Origin: Myxococcota bacterium
GTDB taxonomy: Bacteria; Myxococcota_A; SURF-8
NCBI GenBank assembly: GCA_965140415.1
Contig: OZ223209.1
Span: 1,152,001 to 1,216,000, forward strand
DNA length: 64,000 nt
Direction: 5' to 3'
Shown here one piece after another: positions 12,260 through 38,402 of this stretch. Position 1 is the stretch's first letter. Every line of letters begins with the position of its first letter. The notes below the pieces were generated by a model. It was not told where the DNA came from. It was given only the letters and a program-made list of their open reading frames with translations, and made no database searches. Both the position numbers and the translations under genes were made by a program.

Positions 12260-13723
12260 ATGAATAGATGGTTGGCTGTTAGCGCCGCAGTTTTATTTTC
12301 AATCGCGATATCAGGTTGTAGTGCCGATTCAACTAATGGCACTGCTGGCGATGACGATACCGCTCCAGTTTTTGATGGAGATAACGCCGATGATGGGGAT
12401 TGGTTTGACAGCGATTTCAGCGATGGAGATGCTTTTCAGGATGAAGACAGTGAAGCAGAATTGGATGATGACACAATCAAGCTCGATGGCGATCAAGCAG
12501 AGGGAGACGAATTTTCTGATGGCGATGGGATTGACGGTGAGGTAACTGACCGTGAGGCGGATATCGACGGAGACAAGGATACTGACAGCGAAATAGAATT
12601 GGAAGATGATACGGATACCGACACCGAAAACTGCCCGGAAATGTGGGAAGGGCCGGCGCCGCCGGATTGCAAACATTGGGACTGTGAACTGCAACCCTGG
12701 CCTTCTTGCTGGGTTTGCGACCTCGCGGCTGATCCCAGCCAAAATGGGCTGTCCTGCGAGTATTGCGATGACCAGTGCGAATGCATTGAACCACCCTGTA
12801 AATGTCTGAATGGGAATTGTATCCCTGACTCAGCAGTTGATGGCGATGGTGAAACTGATGCGGACTGGGAATCTGATACTGAATTAAATGGGGAAGAGGA
12901 TGAAACTACCGTTCATGCAATTGAACGAATTGTCATAGCAGGTGATAGCTGGTCCTGCGGCATCGTTGCCCCAACCCGCGCCATCCTTGACGAGCGTGGT
13001 TTTTCCGATATTGAAATCACATATTCGACCACTGCTGTTGCCGGATCTACAGCTGAGGAATGGGTATACAACCACGATAACAAGTTACTGAAACTCACCG
13101 CTGCCTTGGACGAGGATCCCCAAGCCGAATTGCTTCTGTTGGTTATTGGTGGAAACGATGTCAACGCTTCCATCTACAACGACGGTTTCGATGCCATGTC
13201 TGATGGTCAAAGAGCCCAAGTGCTGGACGGCATCCGGGATGACATTCGGGCCATTGTTGATTTTGCTCGTCTCAACCGTCCACATTTATCAATCGTCTTG
13301 GTTGGATACGACTATTTTCACTATCTCTTCCTTCAGGCATTCTATGGATTAGGGGATATGTACCTGGACGAATACAACCTGGCGTTCGTTGGTTTGGGGA
13401 ACCGAAAACTGGAGATTGCAAACCAGGTGAACGGCTGTTACTACGCCCACAATTACGGCGTACTGCAATACACATTTGGTGATCGACCTCATCCGCCTTT
13501 TTCCCTGCCGCTTTTCGAATATCCACCGGGGTACGTTCCTGCCCCAGGCATTGCGCCCGATTACACTCCTTTTCCAGGAGGATTGTACCAGATCCCTTCG
13601 CCGCTGGACCAGATTCCGGATGGAATCCACCCCAGTGAAGAGGGGTTTTCCGCCATCATGAATCATGTGTTTGACCAAGGGATGGAAAACTTATTGCTGG
13701 GGAACGACTGGGTTACCCCCTAA
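12260..13723 (+). CDS. SGNH/GDSL-family hydrolase lipoprotein with acidic DGD linker and Cys-rich insert
   Basis: Lipobox ISGC. Catalytic blocks GDSWS, IGGND and DGIH. GGAG RBS before ATG 12260. Confidence 0.85.
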   Translation: MNRWLAVSAAVLFSIAISGCSADSTNGTAGDDDTAPVFDGDNADDGDWFDSDFSDGDAFQDEDSEAELDDDTIKLDGDQAEGDEFSDGDGIDGEVTDREADIDGDKDTDSEIELEDDTDTDTENCPEMWEGPAPPDCKHWDCELQPWPSCWVCDLAADPSQNGLSCEYCDDQCECIEPPCKCLNGNCIPDSAVDGDGETDADWESDTELNGEEDETTVHAIERIVIAGDSWSCGIVAPTRAILDERGFSDIEITYSTTAVAGSTAEEWVYNHDNKLLKLTAALDEDPQAELLLLVIGGNDVNASIYNDGFDAMSDGQRAQVLDGIRDDIRAIVDFARLNRPHLSIVLVGYDYFHYLFLQAFYGLGDMYLDEYNLAFVGLGNRKLEIANQVNGCYYAHNYGVLQYTFGDRPHPPFSLPLFEYPPGYVPAPGIAPDYTPFPGGLYQIPSPLDQIPDGIHPSEEGFSAIMNHVFDQGMENLLLGNDWVTP

Positions 13724-13986
13724 TCGATCCATGTCGTAAGAAGATATGAAAGCACAATCTGAATGAGTTGTTGGGAAAGAGATGAAGGTGTGCATCGTTC
13801 AGTGATTTTATTACTATAGTGGATAAGTCATTGAAATTGCCGTCAGATAGATTGCATGTTTGGTAAGGCCAATCGCATCACGTCGGAAACAGAAACCTTG
13901 CTCGGTCGCAAGCTAATCACCCTGCGACAGTTTGTCGAGGATTATCGAGAGGTATGGAAAAAGGCTTGATGCATTGACTTCTTGGT

Positions 13987-15216
13987 TTACATGAGTTCCA
14001 GCATCGCCTCCACCTTCATAAATTCCTTCTCTTCGTTGTATTGGCGGGCATCGGCGTGGTCGACCTCGATCATGACAGTAGGAATCCCGAAGCGCTCCTC
14101 TATTTTCCTCTTCAGGTCCATCTGCATCACGGAATAGACCTTGCACGAACGGTTGGAACTGAAAATTACGCCGGTAATTCCGTAGCGCTCGATCAACTGA
14201 CACATCGCTTTGTAGCGCAACTCCAAGCCGGACGGACAGACAGAAAAGTTCTGGATGCGGGCAAGATAGTGCATTGGATCAACCCCATCGTAACGATATG
14301 GATCGATTTGACCTTCCACCGTACCCATGCAGGCCGTGTAGGTTGCCGAAATCACGTTGGCATCGAGTTTAGCCAAACGCGAAGACATATTCCGCAATTG
14401 ATGCCAGGGTGCGATGTTGTCCCAAAGGAGGCGGTGCTTTTCATTAGGGACGGAAACGTCGTTCGCATAAACGAGTTCCTCGGCTTCATCCGCCAGCAGC
14501 TTGCAGTGATCGACCAGTTCCTGCGTGCCGCGATAGCTGGTGATGTAGGGAGCCATGTGAACAAACGAATCGAAAGCCGTCATTCCGGCTGGATGGTGGG
14601 CGGCCAGATCGAGAAAACGCTTCCAGTGCGTATTGGCTTCGTCGGACAGCCGCACGGCTTCACGCACCTTCACCTCGTCCCAGGTCTGCCCTGTCTTGTT
14701 TTCGATCAATGCGATCAGGTCGTGAAACTGAGAAACGATGTAATCCAGATTCTTCTCTTTCTGCGGTTCGTAACAAAAAGGGACATCCAGCGTGAAATGG
14801 GGAACGCCGAGTTTGCGTCGATAGACATCGAACCATTTGACCAGAAGCGAGCAGTTATTGTTGTTGCTAACCAGCAGATCAGGACTGGGCATGCCCATGC
14901 TGGGCGAGCCTTCACCCTTTGTGTACCAGGTTCCCAGGTCGATGCGGGCATAGGAGCATAGGTCCATCGAGTAGCCGCGATGCTCCGCTTTCTCCGCCTG
15001 CGTTGCGCCGACGCCTCTGGCAGCGCACATGGCTGAGTGGTTTTCCGGAACGGCGACAACGAGGTCGAATCCCTTCAGGAGTTCGATGGGAACGATGATG
15101 GCGATCCAGGCGACGAATTTCCCCTGCGCAGCATCCTTGTGCATTTCGGCGAAGTAACGACCGACAAGCTTTTTCAGGTTCGCAGCGGACCGTTCCAGTC
15201 TGATCGTGCCGCTCAT
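13987..15216 (-). CDS. 2-hydroxyacyl-CoA dehydratase subunit (HgdA/FldB/BcrB-like)
   Basis: PENHSA, GYSMDLCSYARID, NNNCS, NRSCKVYS and IEVDHADAR motifs. Confidence 0.88.
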   Translation of the reverse strand: MSGTIRLERSAANLKKLVGRYFAEMHKDAAQGKFVAWIAIIVPIELLKGFDLVVAVPENHSAMCAARGVGATQAEKAEHRGYSMDLCSYARIDLGTWYTKGEGSPSMGMPSPDLLVSNNNNCSLLVKWFDVYRRKLGVPHFTLDVPFCYEPQKEKNLDYIVSQFHDLIALIENKTGQTWDEVKVREAVRLSDEANTHWKRFLDLAAHHPAGMTAFDSFVHMAPYITSYRGTQELVDHCKLLADEAEELVYANDVSVPNEKHRLLWDNIAPWHQLRNMSSRLAKLDANVISATYTACMGTVEGQIDPYRYDGVDPMHYLARIQNFSVCPSGLELRYKAMCQLIERYGITGVIFSSNRSCKVYSVMQMDLKRKIEERFGIPTVMIEVDHADARQYNEEKEFMKVEAMLELM

Positions 15217-16304
15217 GGCGAGTTCTCCAGCATTTCGGCGAATGCCTCGATTCGGGTTTGCACTGACCCGGATTGCGTATCGCCCATGTCGAATTCCAGT
15301 TGCAGGGTTTTGATTCCTTTCCTCCTCAATACTTCATCGAGATCTGGAAAGTCGAAGTATTCATACTCGCAATATTTCTCACCGATGAAGATCAATCCCA
15401 ATGCGTCATACTGCCTTGCAAGGTCTAGCAGTGTTTCGAGCCGACGTTCAGCGGTATGCAGTAAGGTCGAACAGGGCGTGTGATTCATGTAGAACTGATG
15501 ATAGTAATCCTCCACGGTATCGAAAGATTCCGGCGTATACCCGACAGAGCGACCGACCATTGCAGTATCGTCCACAACGACACGCAGACCGGCGCGATCC
15601 ATGGCTTCACAGGCGTACAGCGGAGGCGGAAGGATTCCACTGACGATAATCCTCTTCCCACCGTCCGATTTGTCATTCCCACTGATACTCGCAATGGTCT
15701 CGTCGAGCGCGTGAATCTGTTCTTCGACCGGCTGCGTATTTTGTTCCAGCAACAGCCGCGTTTCATCCGCGTAGCCGATTCTTCCATCTGCGACATGTTC
15801 GCCAAGGACGTTCACCTTCTTTCGCAGGCTGCGATACAGAGAAACGCTGTCTCTAAATGCTTTCAAGTTGAATGGCGTGTCGGTTCGTTCTTCATGGAAC
15901 TCAACCAATTGCCCGATCTCATATTGCAGATAGTTCCGCCCATAGTCGCTGTCAAGACGCGCCGCCGGGATGTGCATGCGCAGCAAAGGCAGTGAATCAT
16001 CGTCAAGGCCGCTTTCGATAATCTCCGGCAGGTTGCGGAGCGTATCGCAGGCGTTGTACATGAAAAGCAGATCGAATTCCTTTGGGCCGTCGCTGAGGAT
16101 GTATTCGATCATCTTGCGGGCGATACCGCAGCAGAAAGTTTGGATATACCGGTCGGCGTGAATCGTTTTGTCGTATTTTTCAGCGAGTCCCCACAGAACC
16201 ACGGGTGTCATATTCATAGAGTGAAACAGTTCGAGCGGCGGGTACAGGGGAAAACACCCTATAACTGGTCTTCTCTTTTTCGTTTTATGTTTCTCTTGAA
16301 ACAT
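15213..16304 (-). CDS. 2-hydroxyacyl-CoA dehydratase subunit (HgdB/FldC/BcrC-like)
   Basis: IGCFPLYPPLEL, QTFCCGIA, NACDTLRNL, KYCEYE and QTRIEAFAEML motifs. Overlaps its partner gene by 4 nt. Confidence 0.88.
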   Translation of the reverse strand: MFQEKHKTKKRRPVIGCFPLYPPLELFHSMNMTPVVLWGLAEKYDKTIHADRYIQTFCCGIARKMIEYILSDGPKEFDLLFMYNACDTLRNLPEIIESGLDDDSLPLLRMHIPAARLDSDYGRNYLQYEIGQLVEFHEERTDTPFNLKAFRDSVSLYRSLRKKVNVLGEHVADGRIGYADETRLLLEQNTQPVEEQIHALDETIASISGNDKSDGGKRIIVSGILPPPLYACEAMDRAGLRVVVDDTAMVGRSVGYTPESFDTVEDYYHQFYMNHTPCSTLLHTAERRLETLLDLARQYDALGLIFIGEKYCEYEYFDFPDLDEVLRRKGIKTLQLEFDMGDTQSGSVQTRIEAFAEMLENSP

Positions 16305-16381
16305 CAACTTTGCTTTCCATCAGAGCAGCCAAATAGCGGGAAAAGCAGTAAAAAGAGGATTGTAAAGATTGCCTTGTTCAT
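16304..16381 (-). CDS. 25-aa ORF made almost only of a lipoprotein signal peptide (MNKAIFTILFLLLFPLFGCSDGKQS)
   Basis: Translated by hand. GGAGAG RBS, lipobox LFGC, and its TGA overlaps the next ATG (TGATG). Confidence 0.55.
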   Translation of the reverse strand: MNKAIFTILFLLLFPLFGCSDGKQS

Positions 16382-16470
16382 GATCTCTCCATGAGCGGTA
16401 TCGGTTGCAATCGTTGAATTTGCATTAAGAAATTCAAGCTAACTCTATGATACCAATGGCTGTTCCAGTA

Positions 16471-18360
16471 TTACTCTTGTGCAAGATCGTACAGCACTTC
16501 TCCGCGGGGATTCGCCGTTCCCATGATTACATGCGAGCCCGCTTCAAACATAACCGGGAGGCTTCCTTGCAAGGCTAATATGGCCGCAGCACGGTTATTG
16601 CTTTGAATGGTGTCAAACGCCACACCCTGGGCGACGTGGATAACCGGCAGACCACCAGAATCGAGAAGCCAGTCCAACAAATCCTGCTGCTCTGGACTGA
16701 AATAGCTTTGAAAAGTTGCTATGACCACAGCATCCGCTTTTTGGCGGTGTTGCTCGACCCATTGTTTGACGGAATCTTCGGTGATACCGATAACAAAGTT
16801 CTTCTTGTCTACCGATGGCTCTACACGTTTCAGAACATCACAGAAGCTCTCCTCAAGAATCCACGACCAACCAGAAGCCGGATCGGGAAGCAATTTATCC
16901 GGGCTGGCGCACAAAATACGCTTCCCTGTGAGTGGAAGAATATCGTTGTTTTCAAGCATGACAACAGCCTGTTCCGCATGGTCCAGCGACATGATCGCAT
17001 CTTGCTCCAGTCCGATTCGGCTTGCTAACTGTGCCATATCATCTTCGTCTGGATACGTAGGTTTTTCGAACAGACAGTATTTCTGCTTGTAGCGCAGGAT
17101 GCGCTTTGTGGAAGCGGCGAAATCTGCTTCTTTGATGTCACCGGTCTGTAGACCTGTCTCGATCCGAGTGAAAAGATCTTCGAGATAGTCGTCTTCGATG
17201 TAAACGTAAAGCAGGATGTCCGCTCCCGACTTCAGAGCCTCGTATCCCTGCTCCTGGTCTTCGGTCAGGCCGATTCGCGTCCCGTACATGTTGAGGTCGT
17301 CGGTTACAATCAGACCTTCAAAGCCGATCTCACCACGCAGAAAGCCCCGCATGATCTTTTCCGAGGTGATCGCCGGTCGCTGATCGTCCAAAGCCGTGTA
17401 CTGTGCGGGAATCATCATCACCGCATCAGCCCCAGTAGAGAAAGCCGCCCGGAATGGCTTGAGCAGTTTGGTTTCCAGTTCTTCCTTCGTCGCGGTGTTA
17501 ATGGAGTACTCATGATGAGTGTTGACAGCGAGCATGCCATCTCCCGGAAAGTGTTTGACCGTCGGGATGACGAGGTTGTGTTGAAACGCCGAAAAGGCGG
17601 CCAGGCCAAGCCGCGTGTTCAGATCCACGTCTGGCCCGAAGGTGCGCGTATTCAGGTTGCCGCTGTCTCGCTGGTAATGGGTGTCGAGCAGGGGACCGAA
17701 GTTCATGTTGACACCAAGGGCCTTGATTTCGCGGCCCATCAAATCAAATTGATCAAACGCGATCCATTCATCTTTCGTTGCGCCGATGGCGGTCGGTCCA
17801 ATGCTGTCCGTGCCGCCGGTCATATGGTTGACCGACGTGTAAACGCCCCCTTCCTGGTCGCTGCTTATGAATAGCGGGATTCCCATCGCCTCAACCGCGA
17901 TAGTCTGGGCGTGATGTAGAAAACGCGCGCTTGTCTCTGGTGCATCCACTGCGATGCCGGTGATCTGACTGACGAAGCCACCACCGAGAAAGTATGAGCG
18001 AATCCGCTGTTCGTCTTCTGTGGAAACGGATGCTCCGGAGCGCCCAAGTTCGGTGATAAGATGCTGCCCGATGCGCTGGCGTATGGACAGGCGATTGTAG
18101 ATGGCGTCGATTTCACTTTCATCGATGGGGCAGTAGGGATAGTCCAGCGACATCGGATCAAAGGCGTCGTCATCGGATTCCAGCGACTCTGTATCAAGGT
18201 CTCCATCTCCGGAGATCTCGGTCGATTCCGAGTCGAAAGCCTCGCTGTCTCTATCGCCATCCTGAAGATCCCCCGGCTCACTATTCGAGCACGAAAAACT
18301 GGTCGCTAATAAAAGTGAGATCAGAATCAAAGCAAAGAATTCGGATAGCCAAGATTTCAT
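16471..18360 (-). CDS. GH3 beta-N-acetylhexosaminidase-like lipoprotein
   Basis: SDQEGG, TRTFG, KHFPGDG and IVTDDL motifs, GH3 C-terminal domain, lipobox SFSC. Confidence 0.9.
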   Translation of the reverse strand: MKSWLSEFFALILISLLLATSFSCSNSEPGDLQDGDRDSEAFDSESTEISGDGDLDTESLESDDDAFDPMSLDYPYCPIDESEIDAIYNRLSIRQRIGQHLITELGRSGASVSTEDEQRIRSYFLGGGFVSQITGIAVDAPETSARFLHHAQTIAVEAMGIPLFISSDQEGGVYTSVNHMTGGTDSIGPTAIGATKDEWIAFDQFDLMGREIKALGVNMNFGPLLDTHYQRDSGNLNTRTFGPDVDLNTRLGLAAFSAFQHNLVIPTVKHFPGDGMLAVNTHHEYSINTATKEELETKLLKPFRAAFSTGADAVMMIPAQYTALDDQRPAITSEKIMRGFLRGEIGFEGLIVTDDLNMYGTRIGLTEDQEQGYEALKSGADILLYVYIEDDYLEDLFTRIETGLQTGDIKEADFAASTKRILRYKQKYCLFEKPTYPDEDDMAQLASRIGLEQDAIMSLDHAEQAVVMLENNDILPLTGKRILCASPDKLLPDPASGWSWILEESFCDVLKRVEPSVDKKNFVIGITEDSVKQWVEQHRQKADAVVIATFQSYFSPEQQDLLDWLLDSGGLPVIHVAQGVAFDTIQSNNRAAAILALQGSLPVMFEAGSHVIMGTANPRGEVLYDLAQE

Positions 18361-20018
18361 TCTTGATCCTCCTTGCCGTCTCCCGGAAGTCCTTCAGCAT
18401 GCCAAGTTTCAACCTGAAGATTCACCTCACGGATGAAGGTGACGAAATCCGCGTATGGTTCATCTATATTATTCATCAAACCGACATTATGGCCATCGAA
18501 AAATCCATCAGACGGATTGTCGAACCATTTATACCAATGGTAGGCCACAGCATAGGGACGGCGCATGAAGCTCTCCACGTACACATCGTAGGCCAGCGCC
18601 CGATCCTTCTGGGTTTCGAAAACGAAGTCATCCATGAAATTTAGAAGTCCGGAATCCTTCGCCCGGAAGGAGAACTCCTCAATGAGAATGGGTTTTTCCA
18701 GTTCCGGCCAGAGAGCATCCAGTTCGTCGACCCAATTTTCCTGATAACCTGCCATGGAAACCACGTCGAAATGCCGGGCAGCCGCTTTAACCATATTATC
18801 CCCAGGGTACCACGCAAAACGGCAGCCCAGAATGAGGTGATTCGTTTCCGCTGCTCGCAATCCCGCCACGGCAATTGTGGCGTATCGGTGAAAGGTGTGA
18901 ACCATGAATTCTTCGGTCACGCTTTCGGCTTCAGCCGTCTCGGGTTCGAAGTTATCGGATATCAGGCCAGGCAGATCATCCCAACTCGCCAGTGTCGTTC
19001 CCCATGTCGCGTTGAACTTATCAAGATCGACAGCGGCCTCCTTCACGAATCGTAACACCTCAACCCGACCTGGCGCATCCACAGGGAAGTCCACATAGAG
19101 TTGAATCAGGGTTTCATCTGTCCGCCAGTCCGGTCCCCAAACAAGCTCATTGTCCAGGAAAAAGCCAAGCAGATTCTTGTCTTCGGCAAGAGGCGCTGCG
19201 CCATTGACAGCTACCGAATAGGCATGATCTTCAAATCCCTGTGACCAGTAATCCGCCACGGGATCTTCCGGATTGTAGCGCGGCGCCCACATACCCGAAT
19301 TGAGAATCGGCTCGGCGTGTGTGTTTCGATCCACTATGGAACGGCTGCTCCATGGACCGATGGTGTTGAATTTCCAATCATGCAATCGATCCAGGGAAGC
19401 ATCGATCCAGGCTTCTTCATCTCCGTATTTATCCACAAGGATCTGGTGGTATTCGTCGTCTCGAAGATTCGAGCCCTGATAATTGACATCCGTAACACCC
19501 TTGGACACCAGCGGATACCCATCCGGCGTGATGAACCACCAGCGGCCATCAATCTTCTTCACCCGGAAATACTCACCAGGATCAGGCTCGCCGAAAGATT
19601 CAGGTGCATTCATCCAGCCGCCGTAAGGATCGAGTTGAACAGTCAGTCCGGCATTTTCGATTCGTAGCTCGTTCAAGCGGGTACGGTAGGCTTTTTCGGT
19701 TTCCGTTTCAGTTTCATTGGCCACACAACGTCCGGCTTCGCAATTCCAACCGTTTTCAGCACAGTCAGCGACGGCCCTCCATTCTCCATCTCGGCAAACC
19801 GTCAGGGAAGCGCCTTCACATCCAATCTGCCCATTCACGCAGGTAGTGGTTTCACTGTCACCATCGGATTGCGCACCGTCCATATCGCCGTCGATGGTTG
19901 GACGTTCTGCGTCCGAATCTCCGTCAGTGGATGACATGCCGGAATCACCGGACGTGCTGCTGCATGAGATATGCAGGAATACGATGGCCAGAAGGACTGC
20001 CAGTGATCTTAAGGTCAT
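18357..20018 (-). CDS. GH50/beta-agarase-like glycoside hydrolase lipoprotein (copy 2)
   Basis: GRWWFITPDG, FNTIGPWS, FLDNELVWG, KPILIEEFSF and YHWYKWFD motifs. Lipobox HISC. GGAG RBS before ATG 20018. Confidence 0.8.
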   Translation of the reverse strand: MTLRSLAVLLAIVFLHISCSSTSGDSGMSSTDGDSDAERPTIDGDMDGAQSDGDSETTTCVNGQIGCEGASLTVCRDGEWRAVADCAENGWNCEAGRCVANETETETEKAYRTRLNELRIENAGLTVQLDPYGGWMNAPESFGEPDPGEYFRVKKIDGRWWFITPDGYPLVSKGVTDVNYQGSNLRDDEYHQILVDKYGDEEAWIDASLDRLHDWKFNTIGPWSSRSIVDRNTHAEPILNSGMWAPRYNPEDPVADYWSQGFEDHAYSVAVNGAAPLAEDKNLLGFFLDNELVWGPDWRTDETLIQLYVDFPVDAPGRVEVLRFVKEAAVDLDKFNATWGTTLASWDDLPGLISDNFEPETAEAESVTEEFMVHTFHRYATIAVAGLRAAETNHLILGCRFAWYPGDNMVKAAARHFDVVSMAGYQENWVDELDALWPELEKPILIEEFSFRAKDSGLLNFMDDFVFETQKDRALAYDVYVESFMRRPYAVAYHWYKWFDNPSDGFFDGHNVGLMNNIDEPYADFVTFIREVNLQVETWHAEGLPGDGKEDQE

Positions 20019-20049
20019 GATAAAAGCTCCTATTATTAACCCGGTTTTA

Positions 20050-24147: not shown

Positions 24148-25526
24148 TCAAGCCATCCTAAACTTTCCAGCGCTTGCCATGCACAGGGACCGGAAGACAT
24201 TCCAAGACCGGTCTTGGCTTCATATCCCTCCAGTCGACCCGACGTGTCAGCTTCGACGGATTCCGGATCGAGGATATAACCAATAGAATCATCGGCAAGA
24301 CCGACTGTGAAACGAAACGGCCCGCTCATCCTTTCCCGCGCGGCCAGGGAGTATTCCGGGCTTGGCTCACCTGGAAAGACGACGAACTCGGCATCTCCGA
24401 GCCTGTGTAGGGAAATGGGGATTTCCGACACGATCATTCTATCATCGTCTTCAATGACCGTGCGTTTGGGCATACCCAGAAGGCGGTATGTGTCCACGAG
24501 GTAGGAGTCCCGCGCTTCGCAGGAGTAGAGGGTCGAATTATGCCGGATGTCGAATCGGTTCGACGGCTCGAACTCGTCAGTCTTGGCTAGCACGGCATCG
24601 GTGAGGGCGCTACCCACCAGCCATGCGTCGTCCCACATGGTTTCTTCCGGGGAGAAGGTGTACGGTCCATGCACGGCAGCAATGAATCCCTGGAGGAACA
24701 TGGCCGGGGCGGCGGTATTTTCCTTCATGGTTTCCCGAAAACCCCAGAGGAAATCGGCTGAGGCGAGAGTGTTCGACTCCGGCAACACCGTGGGATGCTT
24801 GGCGAAATTGATGATGGTGAGCAGAACCTCGTTCTCCGGTGAGCGAGCTTGGGCGACACTCAGCGTGTTGTCGAGAACCGGTGAGCAGTTTTCGTCGCGT
24901 CCGGTATAGCCATTCAGTTCCGTTTCTCCGAAAAACAGAGTGACTTCGCTAAGCTCTTCCGCTGCCTTTATGGCCAGATCGGTCAAGGTTACACGCATGA
25001 ATTCCAACAGTTCCTTATCCACACCCTCACCGATATCCTGGTAGAGCCCTCCGAGATCCGTAGAGGCATGGCTATGGCTGCTGGTGATGACGATCTGGTC
25101 GGGTGAAGTGATCAATCCGCCGGGACTTTTTTCGATGATAGAATATTTTACGTCCCTGATGCCCGGCCCCCATTCGCCGAACTCCCAGCAATACATTGTG
25201 CTATCCAGGCTTATAATAAGAATAGCTTCTCCGGCTCCGTTGGTGAATAACGCCGCTTGCGCAAGCAAGGGGTCGTGGACGCCAGTAGCCGCCCGGTGTT
25301 GGCCTGGAAGACCGAATCCGCCTAAGATAACACCTTCGTCGGGGCTGATGTCCGCCTCGGCATAACCAAGCATGAAACCGCTGGTTTGTTCGGGTTGGTC
25401 GGTCATCTCGGAGTCTTGATCTCCATCGCTGCCAAGAGTTTGTTCGTTATGCGTTTCTTCGCATCCTGCGACAACCAGAATGGTAAAAATCGATAACAGC
25501 AAAATCATTTTCTGGTTGAGATTCAT
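24144..25526 (-). CDS. Neutral/alkaline ceramidase-like metallo-amidase lipoprotein
   Basis: GYAEADISP, GVHDPL, SSHSHAS, NFAKHPT, SADF and FPGEP motifs. Lipobox VAGC. Confidence 0.7.
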   Translation of the reverse strand: MNLNQKMILLLSIFTILVVAGCEETHNEQTLGSDGDQDSEMTDQPEQTSGFMLGYAEADISPDEGVILGGFGLPGQHRAATGVHDPLLAQAALFTNGAGEAILIISLDSTMYCWEFGEWGPGIRDVKYSIIEKSPGGLITSPDQIVITSSHSHASTDLGGLYQDIGEGVDKELLEFMRVTLTDLAIKAAEELSEVTLFFGETELNGYTGRDENCSPVLDNTLSVAQARSPENEVLLTIINFAKHPTVLPESNTLASADFLWGFRETMKENTAAPAMFLQGFIAAVHGPYTFSPEETMWDDAWLVGSALTDAVLAKTDEFEPSNRFDIRHNSTLYSCEARDSYLVDTYRLLGMPKRTVIEDDDRMIVSEIPISLHRLGDAEFVVFPGEPSPEYSLAARERMSGPFRFTVGLADDSIGYILDPESVEADTSGRLEGYEAKTGLGMSSGPCAWQALESLGWLE

Positions 25527-28910: not shown

Positions 28911-30977
28911 TTATTCTCCGCGCAGACGATCGGAAATTTGGCTGCGTAATTCGGCGTCTGTTGCAAACACAAACATGTGCACCGGGGTTTCATTCGATAC
29001 CGGAATATCGCTCAGGACAATACGGCGACCATCCATGGTAACAGGATAGGACACATCCTCCACTCGATCCGGAAATATCTCGAACACGTCATTCACTGCA
29101 AGATCGTCCGGTATGGTAACGGACACGCTTATCGTCCGTTCCGTTAAAATCCAGTGGGGTTCATCCTCAATTTGACCGAGCCCATAGAGCAAACAATCTT
29201 GATCGGTTGGAGCAATGTCGGCCGCCAAAGTTATGACTGGGACCACCAGAGCTTCCGGGCTGCGGATTGCTTCAGTTAGCGTGTCGGTGTCACTTGAGGC
29301 CAAGCCTGTCACATCACCTTCGCGAAGTAGAGGCCGGACACCACGCACCATCCAGTTGACATCTGACATGGCCTGCCAGGTATCTGGGAATTCCTTGGCC
29401 AACTCAGTGCCGGCCTGGAACCACATTAAGCCTTTACCGCCTGCCGCTATAACCTCAAATCCTTGAACTAGGATTTCCTGTGGATCGGGATTGATCGTCC
29501 AACCCCCAAGTCCTTGTGCGTATAGCCATGTCGGCCAAGGCATGTGGTTGTTGCGTGCGTTTCGCAAATAATCAAACGGCGCGCGCAGTGGAGGATGATC
29601 ACCAAAATTAAGGATATGGGGTGCACAGCCTGCCGCATAAATATCAATACCTTGCACGTCGGCCATTCCGGCGAACGCGCCGATATGCTTGTTGGTCATA
29701 GCTCCGTTGTAGGTGAGCAATTCCGGGTAGGACCGCCATATTTTCCGAGTCATAGTTGCTTTGTTTTCGGGCTTCGGTCCGCCCTCATCGGTCGTGTAAG
29801 ACCAGTCGGATTCATCGCCGGTCAAGATTCCTGCAATGGCCGATGTGTCAGTCAGGATGTCGAGTGGAGGATCGTCAAACGGAAAGTCGTCACCAAGCAA
29901 GACGTGAACGTCACCGCGAGCGGGCAAGGTTTCGTTGTACATGCTTGTATTGTCGTAACCGCAACCACTTCCGCCTCCCCAATAGTGGTAGAAAGTATCA
30001 AGTCCACCGGCAAGAAAGAAATCCGTTGCGGTATCATTGACTCCAGGCAGCGCACAATCGCCACCTTTCTGCCAGGCTTCTATTGGGAAAAACGGTTTCA
30101 GGTGTCGTCCCACGGCTGCGACCGAAGATTTGTTTTCCGTGTCGATAACAAGTGTCCATGCGCTGCCTGGTCCTGGAGTTTCGCACAGAGGTGCCGACCA
30201 TATCGCGTGCTCTTCTGGATTAAGTGTCGTTGATGGAATACAGATGACACCCCCTTCCATGAGATTAACGCCATTGTACAAAACGCGGGAAACGGTCACT
30301 GCATCATCTCCCGTATTAGTGACGTGAATCAACAAGGTATCGCGGGTGTTGTTGACAGTTACATAGCCAATCGCGAGCGGATGGATGCTAACATCGAACG
30401 TGCCGTTTACCGCTATGCCATTGTCAGTTTCAATTCGGATATGGCCACTCTCGGCACTATCCCATGAGCTACTTCTTGAATGAAACGCAAACCAGACGGG
30501 TTTTCCCGTTTCGACTTGTTCGGGCCACACATGCTGCCAGTCCATCGAGAGCTCTGCCAACAGATCAGTCACTTGGGTGTCGTTGATGAAAACTCCGGTC
30601 ACCGTACCAGTGACTTGGCTGATCGCCGCTATGTGAAATCGGCCGCCATCCAGCGGATCATCGAGAGGCTCGTTATATTGATCGCTGGGTAGATAGTAGT
30701 CTTTGCGGTAGGATGCATAAATGTCTGAATCTACAATCATCGATTCGCAGGCGGGCTGAACTGACCCGCAGCTGGCCAGAGCGGATATCGGTTCAAACCC
30801 GTGAATGTCGAATTCCGAAGACTCGGCATCCGTTCCATCCCTATCGGCCTGTTCCGTTTCAGTTGTGTCTCCATTATTGATGTCGCCATCCAAAGTATCG
30901 CTATTGGATGAACATCCCAATAAAAATAGTAGCAATACCGCTGGTAACAAGGCGGTTATCGGGCTCATTATTTTCAT
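28911..30977 (-). CDS. Uncharacterised lipoprotein, possibly with a TIM-barrel glycoside hydrolase-like domain
   Basis: Lipobox LLGC and DGD linker. The C-terminal half has TGDESDW, DVQGIDIY, PTWLYAQG and GGKGLMWF segments reminiscent of clan GH-A barrels. Confidence 0.6.
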   Translation of the reverse strand: MKIMSPITALLPAVLLLFLLGCSSNSDTLDGDINNGDTTETEQADRDGTDAESSEFDIHGFEPISALASCGSVQPACESMIVDSDIYASYRKDYYLPSDQYNEPLDDPLDGGRFHIAAISQVTGTVTGVFINDTQVTDLLAELSMDWQHVWPEQVETGKPVWFAFHSRSSSWDSAESGHIRIETDNGIAVNGTFDVSIHPLAIGYVTVNNTRDTLLIHVTNTGDDAVTVSRVLYNGVNLMEGGVICIPSTTLNPEEHAIWSAPLCETPGPGSAWTLVIDTENKSSVAAVGRHLKPFFPIEAWQKGGDCALPGVNDTATDFFLAGGLDTFYHYWGGGSGCGYDNTSMYNETLPARGDVHVLLGDDFPFDDPPLDILTDTSAIAGILTGDESDWSYTTDEGGPKPENKATMTRKIWRSYPELLTYNGAMTNKHIGAFAGMADVQGIDIYAAGCAPHILNFGDHPPLRAPFDYLRNARNNHMPWPTWLYAQGLGGWTINPDPQEILVQGFEVIAAGGKGLMWFQAGTELAKEFPDTWQAMSDVNWMVRGVRPLLREGDVTGLASSDTDTLTEAIRSPEALVVPVITLAADIAPTDQDCLLYGLGQIEDEPHWILTERTISVSVTIPDDLAVNDVFEIFPDRVEDVSYPVTMDGRRIVLSDIPVSNETPVHMFVFATDAELRSQISDRLRGE

Positions 30978-31826: not shown

Positions 31827-33503
31827 TCAGTCCAGATTGTCAAAGTTTACAGGCGTGTACGGATTGTTCGCATTATTCTCCACGGCCTGCTTGAAGGTGG
31901 GATGGGCGGAGAAGTTGGCGCTGTCAAGTGCTTCAAAGTCCGCTTTGATTTTTTCGTAATCGGCATCCTTAACATCTATACGGTAACCTGGATTGTCCGT
32001 TGGATGATAAAGCCCCCAAGTACTTGTGTCGGTATAATATTTCCATGTCCAGAATCCCCAGTGAATCCCTCTTTCGTTCAGTAGTTCCAGTACAAGATCC
32101 ATCCCTTCCACCGAAACATCCGGATGTCCGTCGTTTCCATCCGCCGCATTGAATTCACCCAGATATATGGGACATTCAAAGCGGTCAAAGGCATTACCAA
32201 ATTCTCTCAGATTGCGATCGATATTATTCAGATACTCCTGGGCTGTATCCCCACCCGGATAAAGGTGCAGAGAAAACATTGCGTTTTGCCAGCCCATCTC
32301 TTTGGGCGAACGGATACTGGAAAGCGATTTATAGCCATCTTCGATCATGATGATATGACGAGAATCGACTTCGCGAATGGCCTGATAAATCCCATCATGT
32401 ACACTGGCGTACGTCTCCACATCCGGCGACGCCATCGGTTCGTTCATCAGGTCGAGTATGGCAATATGCGGTTCATCTGCGAAATAACTGGCGATGGCTT
32501 TCCAAAGGCGGGTCGTTTTATCGATGCAGGCTTGATTGGTCCATAGAAATCCACCGTTCTCCAATCCTTGATGCCACGAGGTGCTTTGCCCACCCGGTGT
32601 ACCGTGCATATCGAGCATCAGATACACTTGATGTTTGCGCGCCCATCCAACCAAACGATCCAGTCGTTCCCAGCCATCCGGCTTGAAAGCGTTTTCGTCT
32701 TCTTCATCGCTTTCGAGCGCTTCGTACCAGATCGGAACCCGGATCAGATTCAAGCCCAGTTCCGCAACCCGTTGCACATCCAGTTCGGTGATGTAACTAT
32801 CCTGGAAGGTTTGTCGCAATTCCAGGTATTTTTCCTTACCGAAACGAGCATCAAGGTGTTTCCACAGCGAGCGTTCCTCGTAAATCCAGGGCTCGGATTC
32901 GAACCATGCCCAGAACTGATCCAAGCCGGGAAGATCCTGCTCTGTAGCATTTTGATAAGTATACGGTTTCCACTCCTGCATCAACATCCAATGGGATTTC
33001 GATTCGATCAACCAATCAAATGCCGTTTGATCGCGTGCGGATTCTACCAACTCTGCTACACCGAACTCCTCCGCTTTTGTTGGGATCAGCTCTAGAAAAT
33101 CCCACTCAAACAGCAAACCGACACCGGAGAGCCAAGTTTCCATCATCATCCAACTTCCAAAGTTCACACCACGCAACATGATTTTATTGTCATCTTCATC
33201 GACGATGTCCGTTCCATCCACATGCAAAAACGGTAGGGTCGCTGCTTCGGCAGGTGTTGGCCGGATTGGAAAGGTCTGCGTGTTCGGCTGGCAATCCGCC
33301 CATTTCGTATGATCGAGAGAAACATCTGCAAAGTCGGCATCACTTTCAAAATCAACATCCCCTTCATTCTCGATATCCGTTTCAACGTCACCATCATAAA
33401 CATCCATGTCGCCGTCCGGGACGGTTTCCCTGCTGGTTGTGTTGCAGGCTGGCAACAGGACGATGCTAATGATAAGTAGCCATATCGCCGGGGTCGTTTT
33501 CAT
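31827..33503 (-). CDS. GH5 glycoside hydrolase lipoprotein
   Basis: LRGVNFGSW, NLIRVPIWY, LDMHGTPG, LMNEP (acid/base) and YLGEF (nucleophile). Lipobox LPAC. Confidence 0.92.
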   Translation of the reverse strand: MKTTPAIWLLIISIVLLPACNTTSRETVPDGDMDVYDGDVETDIENEGDVDFESDADFADVSLDHTKWADCQPNTQTFPIRPTPAEAATLPFLHVDGTDIVDEDDNKIMLRGVNFGSWMMMETWLSGVGLLFEWDFLELIPTKAEEFGVAELVESARDQTAFDWLIESKSHWMLMQEWKPYTYQNATEQDLPGLDQFWAWFESEPWIYEERSLWKHLDARFGKEKYLELRQTFQDSYITELDVQRVAELGLNLIRVPIWYEALESDEEDENAFKPDGWERLDRLVGWARKHQVYLMLDMHGTPGGQSTSWHQGLENGGFLWTNQACIDKTTRLWKAIASYFADEPHIAILDLMNEPMASPDVETYASVHDGIYQAIREVDSRHIIMIEDGYKSLSSIRSPKEMGWQNAMFSLHLYPGGDTAQEYLNNIDRNLREFGNAFDRFECPIYLGEFNAADGNDGHPDVSVEGMDLVLELLNERGIHWGFWTWKYYTDTSTWGLYHPTDNPGYRIDVKDADYEKIKADFEALDSANFSAHPTFKQAVENNANNPYTPVNFDNLD

Positions 33504-33515: not shown

Positions 33516-35804
33516 TTAATTCTCATTGGTATAGTGTTCGGATTCGCAAACGAATTCCGCAATATCAAAACCCCAAGCCGTCGGCAAATCTCGTTTCATT
33601 CCTATAATTACAGTCCTGTAGAAACCACTATGGCTCGGATTCCATTTAACCCTGTTGTCTATTGCACGTGCATCAGCCAGGCCAAACACGACGAGGTCAA
33701 CCGCATCTTCACTTGGCGACCAAACCCAGTTTTCGTTTGTTCTGCAGTTCTGTTCGGGCTGATAAAACGATAAAGATGTCACATTTCGATCTGTTACGGG
33801 TAAGGCTCTTACAGCATCCAGTAATTGGGCAACCTTACCAATGCTAAACACAAAGCGATTTTCACTGGAGCGCTCGCGAGCTTCTTCGGCTTTCAGCAAA
33901 GCGTCGTTGCCCGATTCACCGCCCTGTTTTTCCGCCAGTGCGCGAAGCGACCACAATCCCATTTCACCTTCGGACTGGATCTTTTGAAGCGGAAAAGCCA
34001 GTTCATCAACCAGGTCAAACGCCAGGGCGCTGTGGTGAACTTCGAACCGGATGGCGGCCATCCGCCCGAACAATGGCAACAGGTCGAATACTTCATTGAG
34101 ATCCGGATCGGAATCGTATTTTAGTTTCTGAATCAAAGAATCGATGGCCGTTTCCAGTTTACGGTGCCCCGTGTCTTCCTGTGCGTGACCGTCAAAGAGT
34201 TCCATAACAAAACGAAGGGTATCGATATCATTTTCACTGGAATCGTACGGCCTGATTCCGTTTTTCCCCTCCAAATCCGCCGCCACGTCACGACCCTTTG
34301 ATGGCTTGTATGGTCCCGGATCCTGCATAAACATCGCAAAGCTGCCGATATTCAATCGCGACAACCCACCTTGAATGGAAGCGTTGTGCATGATACCGGA
34401 TACCGAAGATAAGAGCGGCTCGTCCCGCCCGGAGAACGCACCAAGCAAAATACGCCCGGTAAAACCGTCCCCACCATCGTTCGCCCAGAAGTTGTCCCAG
34501 ATCACCGGTTTGCGATCAAGCGCATCCACAAACGCATCCAAGTCGGAACCGAACATGTTCAGATTCGAAGTGCCGGGTCCCGTCCACATGACAGCGATTT
34601 CCCGGTCTAAATCAGCCAGCGCGTTCAAATAGCCGACACCATCATCAAACATTGCGATGCGCTCGTCGCTATACACGGTCGGAACAAACATCATATTGAC
34701 GTCAGGATCCAGCAATTGCAGTTCGCCGAACAGGCGATTGGCAACCGAGACATGATTGGCTGCCATCTCAGCATCCACGGGATATTCCGTATCGAATTCG
34801 ATATCGTCCGCCAATAGTGCGATTCCACTGGCTCCAAGCTGGACAAATTCAGTCGCTTTGTTTCTCAGAATGTCAAAATCCTCATCTTGAGACGCATCGA
34901 AATCGATATAGGGGCTGATGCCGAAAAGGAAGGTGATCCGGGATGCTTTACTGTATTCAAACAAGTCCTGAAACCGGCTCTTTTCCGATTCCGTGTAGGG
35001 TTCTCGCCAATTCTCACGATGTTTGTCGTCCCATTTCGGGCAATACAGATAGGTCCCAAGACCGGTTGCGGCGATTCGTTCGATCATGGCGAGCCGTTCG
35101 CCCCACGACCACGGAACCCCATAGAAGCCCTCAATCACACCTGAGAGGGGAAACAATGGATCTGTTGCATCTTTAAAAACATCCGGCTCAGGCGGAATGA
35201 AGGATTCAGGCGCCCATGCCTTTATTTTCAGACTGCTCAAAGAAGCCGAGCCCTGTGTTTGGAAAAGAAGCTGTATGCATCCCGCCTCTGACCCTGAGAG
35301 ATCGATTTCTTCCCCGATTTCCTCCCAAATCAGACTCTGTTTTGCTTGGCCTTGACAGGCATCCATCAAGGTGATTGTCAGTTTTGGGATTTCTCCTTCA
35401 ACAGCCAGTTCTGCGCTTTCAATGGAAACCTGCTCATGCAACCACGGTTGCAAGTCGATCATCAGCGTGGTTTCGTTATTTTCCGGAATCTTCCAGGAAG
35501 TCTCGGGATTGTCGTCGCGAATGGTCGCGATGGCGTCCTGGCTTTCGATCGGCCAGGGAAAGAAGTCTTGTTTCGTATCACTCGCGTCGAGACGGCTGTA
35601 TGGAATCACATCAATCAAAACGAGGCGTGCTTCTACGTCGCCTTCGTCATGTTCTTGAACATCACTTTCGGCCTGATCCAGATCCGAATCTCCGTCAATA
35701 TCTGGAAGATCAGAGGATTCACCACTCGTACAGGCTGCAATTACCAGACCTGCCAGGCTCAACAGAACTATCGACATCCAATGTTTCATCCAAGTGACAT
35801 CCAC
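33516..35804 (-). CDS. GH84 beta-N-acetylglucosaminidase (O-GlcNAcase/hyaluronidase-like) lipoprotein
   Basis: GVIEGFYGVPWS, YCPKWDDKHRENWRE, catalytic LADDI, MWTG and WDNFWAND motifs. Lipobox IAAC. Confidence 0.9.
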   Translation of the reverse strand: MDVTWMKHWMSIVLLSLAGLVIAACTSGESSDLPDIDGDSDLDQAESDVQEHDEGDVEARLVLIDVIPYSRLDASDTKQDFFPWPIESQDAIATIRDDNPETSWKIPENNETTLMIDLQPWLHEQVSIESAELAVEGEIPKLTITLMDACQGQAKQSLIWEEIGEEIDLSGSEAGCIQLLFQTQGSASLSSLKIKAWAPESFIPPEPDVFKDATDPLFPLSGVIEGFYGVPWSWGERLAMIERIAATGLGTYLYCPKWDDKHRENWREPYTESEKSRFQDLFEYSKASRITFLFGISPYIDFDASQDEDFDILRNKATEFVQLGASGIALLADDIEFDTEYPVDAEMAANHVSVANRLFGELQLLDPDVNMMFVPTVYSDERIAMFDDGVGYLNALADLDREIAVMWTGPGTSNLNMFGSDLDAFVDALDRKPVIWDNFWANDGGDGFTGRILLGAFSGRDEPLLSSVSGIMHNASIQGGLSRLNIGSFAMFMQDPGPYKPSKGRDVAADLEGKNGIRPYDSSENDIDTLRFVMELFDGHAQEDTGHRKLETAIDSLIQKLKYDSDPDLNEVFDLLPLFGRMAAIRFEVHHSALAFDLVDELAFPLQKIQSEGEMGLWSLRALAEKQGGESGNDALLKAEEARERSSENRFVFSIGKVAQLLDAVRALPVTDRNVTSLSFYQPEQNCRTNENWVWSPSEDAVDLVVFGLADARAIDNRVKWNPSHSGFYRTVIIGMKRDLPTAWGFDIAEFVCESEHYTNEN

Positions 35805-36837: not shown

Positions 36838-36848
36838 TTGTCATCCTT

Positions 36849-38402
36849 TCATTTTCCGTTTACCGTGGTGTCGGTTTCCGCCAAGCGGTCGAATACAACT
36901 CGATATCCCCGCATCAATCTTGCTGCCACGGTGGGCCCTGAAGAATGTCCTTGGGACCAGTGATTGTCTGGATCCAATTGATAGTGGGGAAAGATGTACC
37001 CTATCTCCACATCGCATAATCCGGAGATGAAGCGGTTTGGGGTGGTGATAAACTGTTCCAGGTAAGGTTCCCGCTCATAATCGGCATACTCTCCCGGGAC
37101 AGGTTCCGGGTCCGGATATTGCCCGATTACCAGTTCGGGAGTCATTTCACCGGGAACGGATATCCAGGTCATGACGTCGCCAAACAAAATGGCGCTTGCC
37201 GGGATATCAATACACGCAAACAAGTCGCATTCGTCACCATCATCGTATAAGTAGCCATCAAAGCCGTCAATCATGCCGCTTACTAGACCCGCATAGAATT
37301 CGAAGTTTTCGAGTACCAGTTTCTGTCTGACCATCGCCGAATTTATGGAAACACAAACCGGAGGATCGCTGCTGCCCAATGCGGAACCAATCACCTCTGC
37401 ATAAGCTTTCCCGATGCGTTCCGCATCCTCAAAGCTTTGCGTGCTCGGCGTCTGCATCAATCCCAACGCACCGGAAAAATAGATCGCCATGCCGCCGAAT
37501 TCCGCTTCGATTTCTTCGCGTAGATAATGAGGATAGTCTGAAGACAGGAGCAGATTTTCAGATCCTGCCGCTTCCGGGTGATTGGCAATGCTCATCATGG
37601 TGGAGATGACATCTCCATTTTGTGCCACGCCCTGGATGATGCCGATTGTTGGATCTTTCACATCCGGCGGATCAATATCCACAACGACATCTCTGGGCTG
37701 AATGGCGGAAGCGAATCGCAACTCACCGGGTTGCATATCATCGAGAGCTTCCACAGCCGCCTGCGCTGTCAATTCAACCACTTGATCGAGGTATTCCGGG
37801 GGCATCAGATCCCAAATACCCTGTGTATCAGGCCCCTGGTGGGTATGAGTGCTTGCCCAGTGAACGGTTCTTTGAGCGATATCGGCTTCCGGACGCAACT
37901 CGCTGATTCTATCGACCAAGCCGTCATAGCGAGCCAAGCCCAACCCGATGAGATCACTGGCGCAAAACAGGTAAGCCTGACCGTTTGCCTCTACAGCCAT
38001 ACATCTGCTCCAGAGTGAATCATGAACTCCCTGGGCCTGCCGTGCTCCAAATCCGGCTAAATATACGGGATCGTATTGTCCGTTCTCATTCGTATCCGCA
38101 TAACTTTCCTCATTCTCGCGCCAGGAGTTACCGTTGGTATCCTCGTATGGTTCAACGGTAGGCGTGATGTTGCGCTTTGCAGCACCTATCCTCATCGTGC
38201 AGGTGAAAGGAGAATCCATTTCGCCATTTTCAATATCTGCATCTTCCGTCGCATCAGATTCAACTACCTCGTTTGAATCGAGGTCTCCATCCGTGTTTGG
38301 CAATGCTTCATTGGATGTGCAGGCGGTTATGCAAGCCATAACGAGCCCTAAAAGCATCAGCAAACAAACCCGAAAATTAATGAGTTCATCTTTTTCAATC
38401 AT
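36849..38402 (-). CDS. Neutral/alkaline ceramidase-like metallo-amidase lipoprotein
   Basis: GAAKRNITP, GVHDSLWSR, STHTHQGPDT, ANHPE, SSDYP and PGEMTPEL motifs. EF-hand-like DTNGN/DTNENG insert. Lipobox ITAC. Confidence 0.72.
   Translation of the reverse strand: MIEKDELINFRVCLLMLLGLVMACITACTSNEALPNTDGDLDSNEVVESDATEDADIENGEMDSPFTCTMRIGAAKRNITPTVEPYEDTNGNSWRENEESYADTNENGQYDPVYLAGFGARQAQGVHDSLWSRCMAVEANGQAYLFCASDLIGLGLARYDGLVDRISELRPEADIAQRTVHWASTHTHQGPDTQGIWDLMPPEYLDQVVELTAQAAVEALDDMQPGELRFASAIQPRDVVVDIDPPDVKDPTIGIIQGVAQNGDVISTMMSIANHPEAAGSENLLLSSDYPHYLREEIEAEFGGMAIYFSGALGLMQTPSTQSFEDAERIGKAYAEVIGSALGSSDPPVCVSINSAMVRQKLVLENFEFYAGLVSGMIDGFDGYLYDDGDECDLFACIDIPASAILFGDVMTWISVPGEMTPELVIGQYPDPEPVPGEYADYEREPYLEQFITTPNRFISGLCDVEIGYIFPHYQLDPDNHWSQGHSSGPTVAARLMRGYRVVFDRLAETDTTVNGK

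Follow-up and report, generated by a model that had tools for sequence, protein, structure and literature searches.

About half of the outer-membrane (OM) lipoproteins of Escherichia coli carry a disordered linker of more than 22 residues that is required for Lol-dependent trafficking, and artificial disordered linkers of the right length are tolerated by this organism (10.1101/2021.01.05.425367). Cryo-EM of LolCDE with Lpp, Pal and LolB has shown linker residues 12-16 (Cys = 1) lying in a LolE cleft as a short strand (PMC12846838). In Bacteroidota, a lipoprotein export signal (LES) acts at positions +2 to +6, as K-(D/E)2 in C. canimorsus and as SDDDD in B. fragilis (Lauber et al., 2016, PMC5080379), and the export of surface lipoproteins in this phylum has now been tied to the Lpt machinery (PMC13692018). 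Among Myxococcota, position-specific signals have been described in M. xanthus, Lys at +2 for the inner membrane and Ala at +7 for the extracellular matrix (Bhat et al., 2011, PMC3222651). Here we describe a different N-terminal element, a tract of Asp-Gly-Asp (DGD) units shortly past the lipidated Cys, in a stretch of 64,000 nucleotides of a Myxococcota bacterium of the SURF-8 lineage (assembly GCA_965140415.1, contig OZ223209.1, positions 1,152,001 to 1,216,000; hereafter the window) and in the rest of its genome.

A first-pass annotation of the window had pointed to DGD, followed by acidic residues, on all lipoproteins of a cluster of enzymes and had suggested a dedicated export signal or a cation-dependent spacer. 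From the follow-up presented here, DGD is, on balance, probably the repeat unit of a lineage-specific, strongly acidic and probably disordered lipoprotein tether, which may include an element for sorting or handling. No publication on a DGD lipoprotein motif was found in a literature search whose coverage stops short of subscription journals and supplements. What is new is the DGD unit with its period of five or six residues, its fixed register, which a lone GD shares in a sister family, and its exclusion from housekeeping lipoproteins.

A lipoprotein motif of the whole genome

Throughout the text, offsets count the Cys as 0 and +n positions count it as 1. All 11 open reading frames (ORFs) with a lipobox-Cys signal peptide between 12176 and 38477 of the window have DGD 8-19 residues past the Cys, in agreement with the first-pass annotation, whose quoted tether peptides are correct against the window translations; as it had also stated, the tract is absent from the neighbouring cytoplasmic genes (none in five: two of the HGD-D family, TetR, PIG-L and Fe-ADH-like). 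Its wording that every lipoprotein carries DGD is right for this cluster and too broad for the genome, where about half do so.

The genome (labelled G000; 5.98 Mb in one contig, 52% GC) was searched in 4149 genes called by a simple codon-bias model, the products of which were divided by crude in-house scripts into proteins with a signal peptide of the signal peptidase II (SPII) or signal peptidase I (SPI) type, proteins with an N-terminal transmembrane (TM) segment, other TM proteins and cytoplasmic proteins. Two rules were used for lipoproteins, a PROSITE-like lipobox (633 candidates) and a broader rule (740 SPII candidates). Clear false positives, being cytoplasmic or inner-membrane proteins, made up 4 of 92 sampled SPII candidates, and errors of the scripts affect the denominators and not the DGD-positive (DGD+) set, because DGD was not used in detection. 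Up to 740 of the 4149 called genes (18%, crude rule) are thus candidate lipoproteins, a very large lipoproteome if confirmed; relatives within the phylum have 10-17 lipoprotein candidates per 100 kb.

Of the 633 candidates of the PROSITE-like rule, 323 have a DGD no more than 40 residues past the Cys, where 200 per-sequence shuffles averaged 99.8 and reached at most 119, and in 203 of these 323 the first DGD falls inside offsets 8-12. In the same set, the tripeptide DGD occurs 810 times where composition predicts 71 (11.4-fold), and GDD, of identical composition, just 98 times. The pattern is real, genome-wide and far beyond chance. The tract is also specific to lipoproteins. Under the broader rule, DGD is found within 40 residues in 385 of 740 SPII proteins and in 22 of 632 SPI, 4 of 387 N-terminal-TM, 3 of 333 other TM and 15 of 2057 cytoplasmic proteins, and 3600 of the 4463 DGD tripeptides of the proteome are held by SPII proteins. 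At least 10 of the 22 SPI proteins with DGD are lipoproteins with N, T, Q, D or Y preceding the Cys. Judged from these sequences, the lipobox of the lineage seems looser than the textbook G/A/S before Cys, so that standard predictors may undercount its lipoproteins. Examples of DGD proteins with an odd lipobox in this genome are found at C1:3161383, 5260853, 4732688, 1997140, 4367095 and 3650600.

Anatomy of the tether

The logo of the first unit (n = 269 units) reads [T/P/V]-D-G-D-[T/S/L]-[D/E], with T67, P51 and V40 at position -1 and T42, P32, S31 and D25 at position -2. The Cys of DGD+ proteins is followed by S or G (at +2, S 38%, G 26%, D 13% and N 10%) and then by Asp in 30-42% at +3 to +6, the modal neck across the genome being S-D-D-D-D, while D (22%), T (14%) and S (14%) lead at +7. 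The onset of the tract is sharp: GD with its Gly at offsets 6, 7 and 8 is found in 7, 6 and 7 of the 740 proteins, and at offsets 9, 10, 11 and 12 in 67, 97, 78 and 53. The frequency of Asp likewise dips at offsets 6-8 between Asp-rich zones on both sides, and from these two features together the tether can be divided into a neck, a hinge, a first unit in fixed register and a variable array.

Successive DGDs are spaced by 5 residues in 1215 cases and by 6 in 744, the number of units per protein ranges from 1 to 28 (a single unit in 79 proteins), and the tract ends at a median of +25, with the 10th and 90th percentiles at +13 and +90. All 16 codon combinations for DGD are present, so the repetition is one of protein and not of a DNA microsatellite. 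The tract is almost free of Lys and Arg (K/R), with a mean of 0.33 at +2 to +31 in DGD+ lipoproteins vs 2.48 in those without DGD (DGD-), and the net charge over 30 residues is -10.0 vs -2.9. For a lipoprotein of 319 residues with 27 units, AlphaFold2 (AF2), run on a single sequence, gave pLDDT values of 27-47 and no secondary structure across residues 23-220. When six tracts, taken from a list of the 12 longest, were compared with Pfam at E up to 10, no convincing Ca-binding or other repeat family was found; TrAA12, LbR_Ice_bind and bactofilin appeared below threshold, and Glyco_hydro_42C on one tract is a low-complexity match, with a whole-protein score above the cut-off and no matched stretch.

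Which lipoproteins carry the tract

In an even sample of forty 20-kb blocks, the 92 SPII candidates comprised 44 DGD+ and 48 DGD- proteins, of which 21 and 23, respectively, had Pfam matches. The DGD+ enzymes included GH79, GH92, a secretory lipase, a PNGase-F-like protein, a chlorophyllase/PETase-like esterase, a ceramidase, PI-PLC, a 5'-nucleotidase, two Exo_endo_phos proteins, an arylsulfotransferase and an FGE-sulfatase/propeller protein, and the other DGD+ matches were four Lcl_C, RHS, PPC, P_proprotein, Ig-like and a Blc-type lipocalin. Together with the varied families of the cluster, this sample bears out the earlier remark that the tract is attached to unrelated enzymes. The DGD- matches include OmpA, a triple PPIase, TPR, Sel1, DUF192, VIT-VWA and the four false positives. 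None of the five OmpA/Pal-type lipoproteins of the genome has DGD, nor does BamD, all of them being K/R-rich past the Cys, and the eight OEP proteins belong to the SPI class and have no DGD. Exported degradative enzymes and adhesin-like proteins thus predominate among the proteins marked by the tract, which avoids the housekeeping of the envelope, although the split is not clean.

Distribution among Myxococcota

A DNA pattern of paired DGDs (two DGD 3-18 bases apart) was run on 401 Myxococcota genomes. It matched 2789 times in G000 (once in the backwards control), 358-1506 times in five other genomes of its family (f1, which includes G001) and 1041 times in f4, a family of the same order represented by G008; the counts for f2 (G006) and f3 (G007) were 70, 19 and 9, and elsewhere they were mostly below 100, so that the restriction to a lineage expected by the first-pass annotation is borne out. 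A triple pattern of period 5 gave 971 matches in G000, 546 in G001, 57 in G008, 24 in G004 and 0-7 elsewhere. Lineages with intermediate numbers of paired matches (250-700; f41, f67 and f10) were considered as further bearers of the same repeat and were ruled out by their triple counts of 0-7, f41, f67 and f10 having 0. The tandem repeat is confined to one family plus a neighbouring family of an uncultured order of Myxococcota.

The relatives were also scanned for lipoproteins, with the same simple rule, on evenly spaced samples of DNA. DGD was found within +40 in 51 of 108 SPII candidates of G000, with the first DGD at +7 to +13 in 37; the corresponding numbers are 30 and 22 of 60 in G001, 20 and 6 of 47 in G008, 4 and 2 of 40 in G006, and 3 and 0 of 68 in G020, which belongs to another family of the phylum. 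The sample of G007 (60 kb; 6 candidates, of which 5 come from the sample and 1 from a GH92 locus) is too small for a judgement. Poor in DGD as it is, G006 has a single in-register GD in 17 of its 40 candidates vs 3.2 +/- 1.7 in shuffles, and 50% of its acidic tethers have Gly at offset 11. The homologues of GH92 show the same pattern: f1 and f4 have a lipobox and DGD repeats, f2 and f3 have SGD around offset 9-13, and most of the distant Myxococcota genomes have a lipobox with neither DGD nor SGD. What is conserved at the level of the order is a single xGD whose distance to the Cys is fixed, the DGD array being an elaboration at the level of the family. The tethers of G008 tend towards long runs of poly-Asp (e.g., more than 20 D in a row) and EDGD units, in a register much weaker than in f1 and f2. 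Taken together, the samples of G008 and G020 agree with acidic tethers as a habit of the whole phylum, in flavours particular to each lineage.

Evolution of the tethers

A 6.5-kb segment of G006 has 86-88% DNA identity to positions 13974-18189 and 21681-23986 of the window. This segment (G006:C1:202838-210616) holds the HGD-D pair, GH3 and GH92, without the paralogues at 18357-21750. It looks like a recent transfer between two lineages, to judge from the alignment, and the transferred GH92 would have kept its DGD tether in a genome that is otherwise nearly free of DGD in its tethers and is assigned to another family of the same order. In the GH92 pair (88% identity), TDGD at +10/+11 and the second unit are kept, whereas flanking residues and the number of units differ. 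Tethers that have diverged between such near-orthologues indicate that a tether changes far more quickly than the domain attached to it; near-orthologues often, but not always, retain the in-register unit. Mixed codons together with the TDGD kept in GH92 show that selection acts on the protein rather than on a DNA repeat.

Comparison with described signals and repeats

The closest likeness is to the linkers of E. coli RcsF, Pal and NlpD (El Rayes et al.), which also run from the lipidated Cys to the folded domain without predicted structure. The DGD tract agrees with the definition of a disordered OM-lipoprotein linker (unstructured from Cys+1, the long class exceeding 22 residues), its own onset being within about 10 residues of the Cys; like those linkers it is often longer than 22 residues (median end +25) and sits on unrelated proteins. 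Unlike them, it is a defined DGDxx repeat with a register-locked first unit and a net charge of -10 in 30 residues, and, unlike in E. coli, where Pal and BamD bear linkers, it is found on about half of the lipoproteins and not on Pal or BamD.

The resemblance to the LES, which the first-pass annotation had brought up, is one of kind: an acidic element shortly past the Cys, for which position matters, marks one class of lipoproteins with many glycan-degrading enzymes, and the modal S-D-D-D-D neck of DGD+ proteins resembles the SDDDD of B. fragilis. The LES occupies +2 to +6, the conserved DGD about +9 to +15, and the phylum is a different one. An LES-like neck (a polar or basic residue, then at least two D/E) is present in 186 of 385 DGD+ and 67 of 355 DGD- proteins and in 1 of the 11 window proteins. 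With DGD beyond the LES positions and the neck rare in the cluster, identity with the Bacteroidota signal has to be given up. M. xanthus belongs to the same phylum and provides a precedent for a sorting determinant several residues past the Cys, but its rules do not describe DGD+ proteins, since K does not lead at +2 and D, T and S, not A, lead at +7; the DGD register is at about +10 to +13.

Acidic repeats are also known from Gram-positive bacteria, in the Ser-Asp (SD) repeat R region of staphylococcal adhesins, a C-terminal stalk adjoining the LPXTG wall anchor. This region is, as the DGD tether would be, an acidic repeat stalk that spaces a functional domain from the envelope; the SD region, unlike the tether, has no lipid anchor and no register-locked unit. 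Among Ca2+-binding repeats, the D-x-D-x-D-G loop to which DGD had been likened calls for D at -2, found in 25 of 269 units, and the repeat reads D-G-D-x-x-D-G-D; six tracts gave no match to a Ca-binding repeat in Pfam, and the likeness does not hold. The RTX nonapeptide GGxGxDxUx is equally absent, given a period of 5-6 and not 9, no Pfam RTX match and no predicted beta structure. The defining features of the LES, DxDxDG/TSP3/EF-hand and RTX groups were tested and are lacking, so the tract belongs to none of them.

Candidate reading machinery

The lipoprotein machinery of G000 consists of one LspA, two LolA-like and two LolF-like genes and lolD. The LolF-like genes (C1:3641102-3642436 and 2524513-2525847) are 53% identical, and one of them stands in a lolD-bamA-skp-lpxD context, the other being solitary; G006 and G009 have a tandem LolF-like pair, one member of which has about 18 additional residues, a Cys among them, inserted in the cleft region. 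The LolF cleft was mapped on E. coli LolE 222-260, and f1 and f2 share GGFPY[KQ]VRDW there. Slam/DUF560 (PF04575) had no match in G000 and likewise none in the control genomes, which makes this search uninformative. A complex prediction that paired the periplasmic domain of LolF2 (residues 50-297) with the N-terminal 40 residues of the mature GH92 lipoprotein, run with no controls, scored 0.00 and is evidence neither way.

What the tether may do

One class of lipoproteins, mainly exported glycosidases, lipases, nucleases, phosphatases and adhesin-like proteins, has its folded domain linked to the lipidated Cys by the tether. Polar or acidic residues, frequently S-D-D-D-D, form the neck (offsets 1-5); G-D is avoided in the short hinge (offsets 6-8); and the register-locked first unit has its Gly 9-11 residues past the Cys, beyond which 0 to about 27 more DGDxx(x) units, quick to change in number, follow. 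Such a tract could hold the N-terminal 25-90 residues in an unfolded, K/R-free state that would suit handling by the Lol transporter, by analogy with the disordered linker of E. coli, and would space the enzyme from the membrane. The register-locked unit may be a class label that is read at a fixed distance from the lipid and could send proteins to the cell surface or into vesicles, and polyanionic repeats would be expected to bind divalent cations weakly and non-specifically.

A first unit that is fixed relative to the Cys is what a machine-read signal would look like, and on the numbering of E. coli (Cys = 1) its place at +10 to +14 overlaps the linker stretch 12-16 gripped by the extractor of that organism. 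That the first unit is in fact read by a trafficking machine, and so serves as a label for the surface or for vesicles, is possible, though short of probable. Extended to the whole order, the idea becomes rather doubtful: a register-locked xGD about 10-12 residues past the Cys would be a true lipoprotein sorting signal, read at a Lol-type cleft or by a parallel Lpt-like route, that sends the degradative enzymes, roughly half of the lipoproteome, to the surface or OM vesicles, and the DGD repeats would be a later elaboration.

Several observations weigh against the preferred reading as a whole. The tether of the GH3 near-orthologue in G006 has fully diverged, with DGD at +2 and the in-register DGD lost. 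The register in G008 is weak (10 of 47 candidates vs 7.3 in shuffles), and the acidic tethers of G020 are of a DA/DV type with no register; such other flavours suggest that acidity alone may be what matters. A few true SPI proteins open with DGD repeats directly past the AxA site, and DGD arrays also serve as internal linkers, at 4.8 DGD per 1000 residues in the remainder of SPII proteins, which makes the repeat itself a general extracytoplasmic linker. The split between classes is blurred on both sides, since the DGD- set also holds two S8 and two trypsin-like peptidases, Peptidase_MA_2 and a penicillin amidase, and the DGD+ set includes the Blc-type lipocalin, which in E. coli is an OM lipoprotein facing the periplasm. 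The link to surface or vesicles is read from the types of enzyme only, and the signal of disorder given by AF2 is weak because the run had no alignment. A co-distributed translocon, which the first-pass annotation had proposed to look for, was not found: a LolF paralogue was considered as a dedicated transporter and rejected, as its copy number is independent of the motif (G001 1, G004 2, G006 2 in tandem, G020 2). The basic residues on the cleft strand of LolF are present in motif-free lineages as well, with no clear discriminating feature.

A rival reading is a plain spacer, a long, flexible acidic stalk which has drifted to DGD through gain and loss of units, holds no sorting information, and owes its register to a neck of nearly constant length. 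The range of 1-28 units and of tract ends from +13 to +90 (10th-90th percentile) fits such drift, as do tethers beyond alignment between 86%-identical orthologues, the reuse of the repeat in internal linkers and at the start of a few SPI proteins, the DA/DV and poly-D flavours of G020 and G008, and the tolerance of E. coli for artificial disordered linkers of the right length (10.1101/2021.01.05.425367). A stalk of this kind does not readily account for the jump in GD between offsets 6-8 and 9-11, nor for the one in-register GD without repeats in the sister family f2 (17 of 40 vs 3.2 expected); the tethers of the 79 single-unit lipoproteins are too short to be stalks, and housekeeping lipoproteins, which also need linkers, have no tract. 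We regard the spacer as a serious, if tentative, alternative that falls on the unlikely side.

The Ca2+ reading was part of the first-pass annotation in the form of a cation-dependent spacer, and as a dedicated module it would make each DGD unit a defined Ca2+ site that stiffens the stalk or ties it to lipopolysaccharide. Polyanionic Asp-rich tracts do bind divalent cations, and the regular spacing of Asp pairs and Gly (period 5 in 1215 and period 6 in 744 cases) in a tract almost free of K/R is what this module would need. The units nevertheless depart from DxDxDG, with T/P/V favoured at -1 and D at -2 in few of them; none of six tracts matches TSP_3, EF-hand, dockerin, Excalibur or RTX at E up to 10; AF2 (single sequence) predicts no ordered repeat fold, and many proteins have a single unit. 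The module as a whole is improbable and a defined Ca2+ site formed by DGD units is unlikely, weak non-specific binding by a polyanion being all that is expected. Still further down we place the idea that a protease sheds the enzymes by cutting at the in-register [TPV]-DGD, or that this unit is the target of a post-translational modification, which we consider very improbable. The fixed distance from the anchor and the membership of the class, enzymes that would be most active when released, agree with it, as does the precedent of M. xanthus, in which a position-specific N-terminal signal takes some lipoproteins to the extracellular matrix (PMC3222651). A single cleavage or modification site would not need the many downstream repeats, and no candidate enzyme was identified. 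We know of no sequon that the DGD tract resembles. The acidic, probably disordered tether with a possible sorting or handling element thus remains the preferred reading.

The locus and its surroundings

By Pfam annotation of the window ORFs, the minus-strand region 16471-38477 is a glycan-degradation cluster, which consists of GH3, two paralogues without Pfam family, GH92, a Pfam-less protein, a penicillin-amidase-family protein, TetR, a Pfam-less protein, a PIG-L deacetylase, GH5, the GH84 NAGidase, an Fe-ADH-like protein and a further Pfam-less protein. The lipoprotein 12176-13723 and two HGD-D-family genes lie upstream. The coordinates of the tethers are collected in Table 1. The Pfam-less lipoproteins 18357-20078 and 20050-21750 are tandem paralogues in which a small module with four to six Cys is placed between the DGD tether and a large conserved domain. 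The first-pass annotation had also counted ten tandem DGD units in a lipoprotein named after position 46016 (ORF 45827-48928); the ten units exist, as an inter-domain linker far from the lipidated Cys and outside the tether, which has EGD at offsets 9-11.

Table 1. Tethers and control genes in the window. Coordinates of the first tether run from the Cys codon through the last DGD inside +60; offsets as defined in the text.
Feature	Coordinates	Strand	DGD offsets and remarks
Tether, lipoprotein 12176-13723 (no Pfam family)	12317..12493	+	19, 25, 35, 56
Tether, GH3 lipoprotein 16471-18360	18199..18291	-	10, 28
Tether, lipoprotein 18357-20078 (no Pfam family)	19857..19964	-	13, 24, 33; then Cys-rich module
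Tether, lipoprotein 20050-21750 (no Pfam family)	21538..21696	-	13, 24, 40, 50
Tether, GH92 lipoprotein 21769-24147	24025..24087	-	10, 18
Tether, lipoprotein 24144-25526 (no Pfam family)	25419..25463	-	12 (one DGD)
Tether, penicillin-amidase-family lipoprotein 25656-28235	28071..28112	-	11 (one DGD)
Tether, lipoprotein 28911-30977 (no Pfam family)	30882..30914	-	8
Tether, GH5 lipoprotein 31827-33503	33387..33446	-	10, 17
Tether, GH84 (NAGidase) lipoprotein 33516-35804	35688..35732	-	12
Tether, lipoprotein 36849-38477 (no Pfam family)	38283..38321	-	10
Tether start, lipoprotein 45827-48928 (MopE-type Cys-rich repeats)	46076..46111	+	EGD at 9-11, register shared with the other tethers
Internal array of ten DGDV[TVI] units, lipoprotein 45827-48928	46829..46990	+	about 250 residues past Cys; inter-domain linker
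Two cytoplasmic HGD-D-family genes	13987..16307	-	no tract; internal control
TetR, cytoplasmic	28274-28876		no tract
PIG-L, cytoplasmic	31002-31817		no tract
Fe-ADH-like, cytoplasmic	35818-36837		no tract

Further along the window, 41050-45621, a stretch of low GC (45%), encodes a sigma-54 activator of 1523 aa with GAF domains and an unusually long N-terminal region. The ORFs at 49678-52326, 52845-57596, 57596-60847 and 61008-62156 comprise a TOTE conflict-system-type AEP primase domain, two large Pfam-less ORFs of 1583 and 1083 aa and an integrase (rve_3), with a GC content of 45-49% in the two large ORFs and the integrase; this region (49678-62156) is possibly a defence island.

Meaning for lipoprotein sorting in Myxococcota

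How lipoproteins choose their destination in diderms beyond Proteobacteria and Bacteroidota is largely unknown, and here a genome with up to about 18% candidate lipoproteins (740 of 4149 genes by a crude call) marks half of these with one simple motif, which the eye can pick out and whose distance to the lipid is fixed. For annotation, the tracts call for caution, because start sites, domain borders and repeat-induced assembly errors cluster in them. If the tract were only a spacer, it would be a clean case of a low-complexity linker "dialect" fixed in a lineage. If it is a sorting tag, it would provide a rule that predicts the set of surface or vesicle enzymes of uncultured glycan-degrading Myxococcota, a handle on the machinery that reads it and a natural test of the grip of Lol on linker residues 12-16; and were xGD the sorting signal, no LES-like consensus would have preceded it beyond the Bacteroidota, and its position would be new as well.

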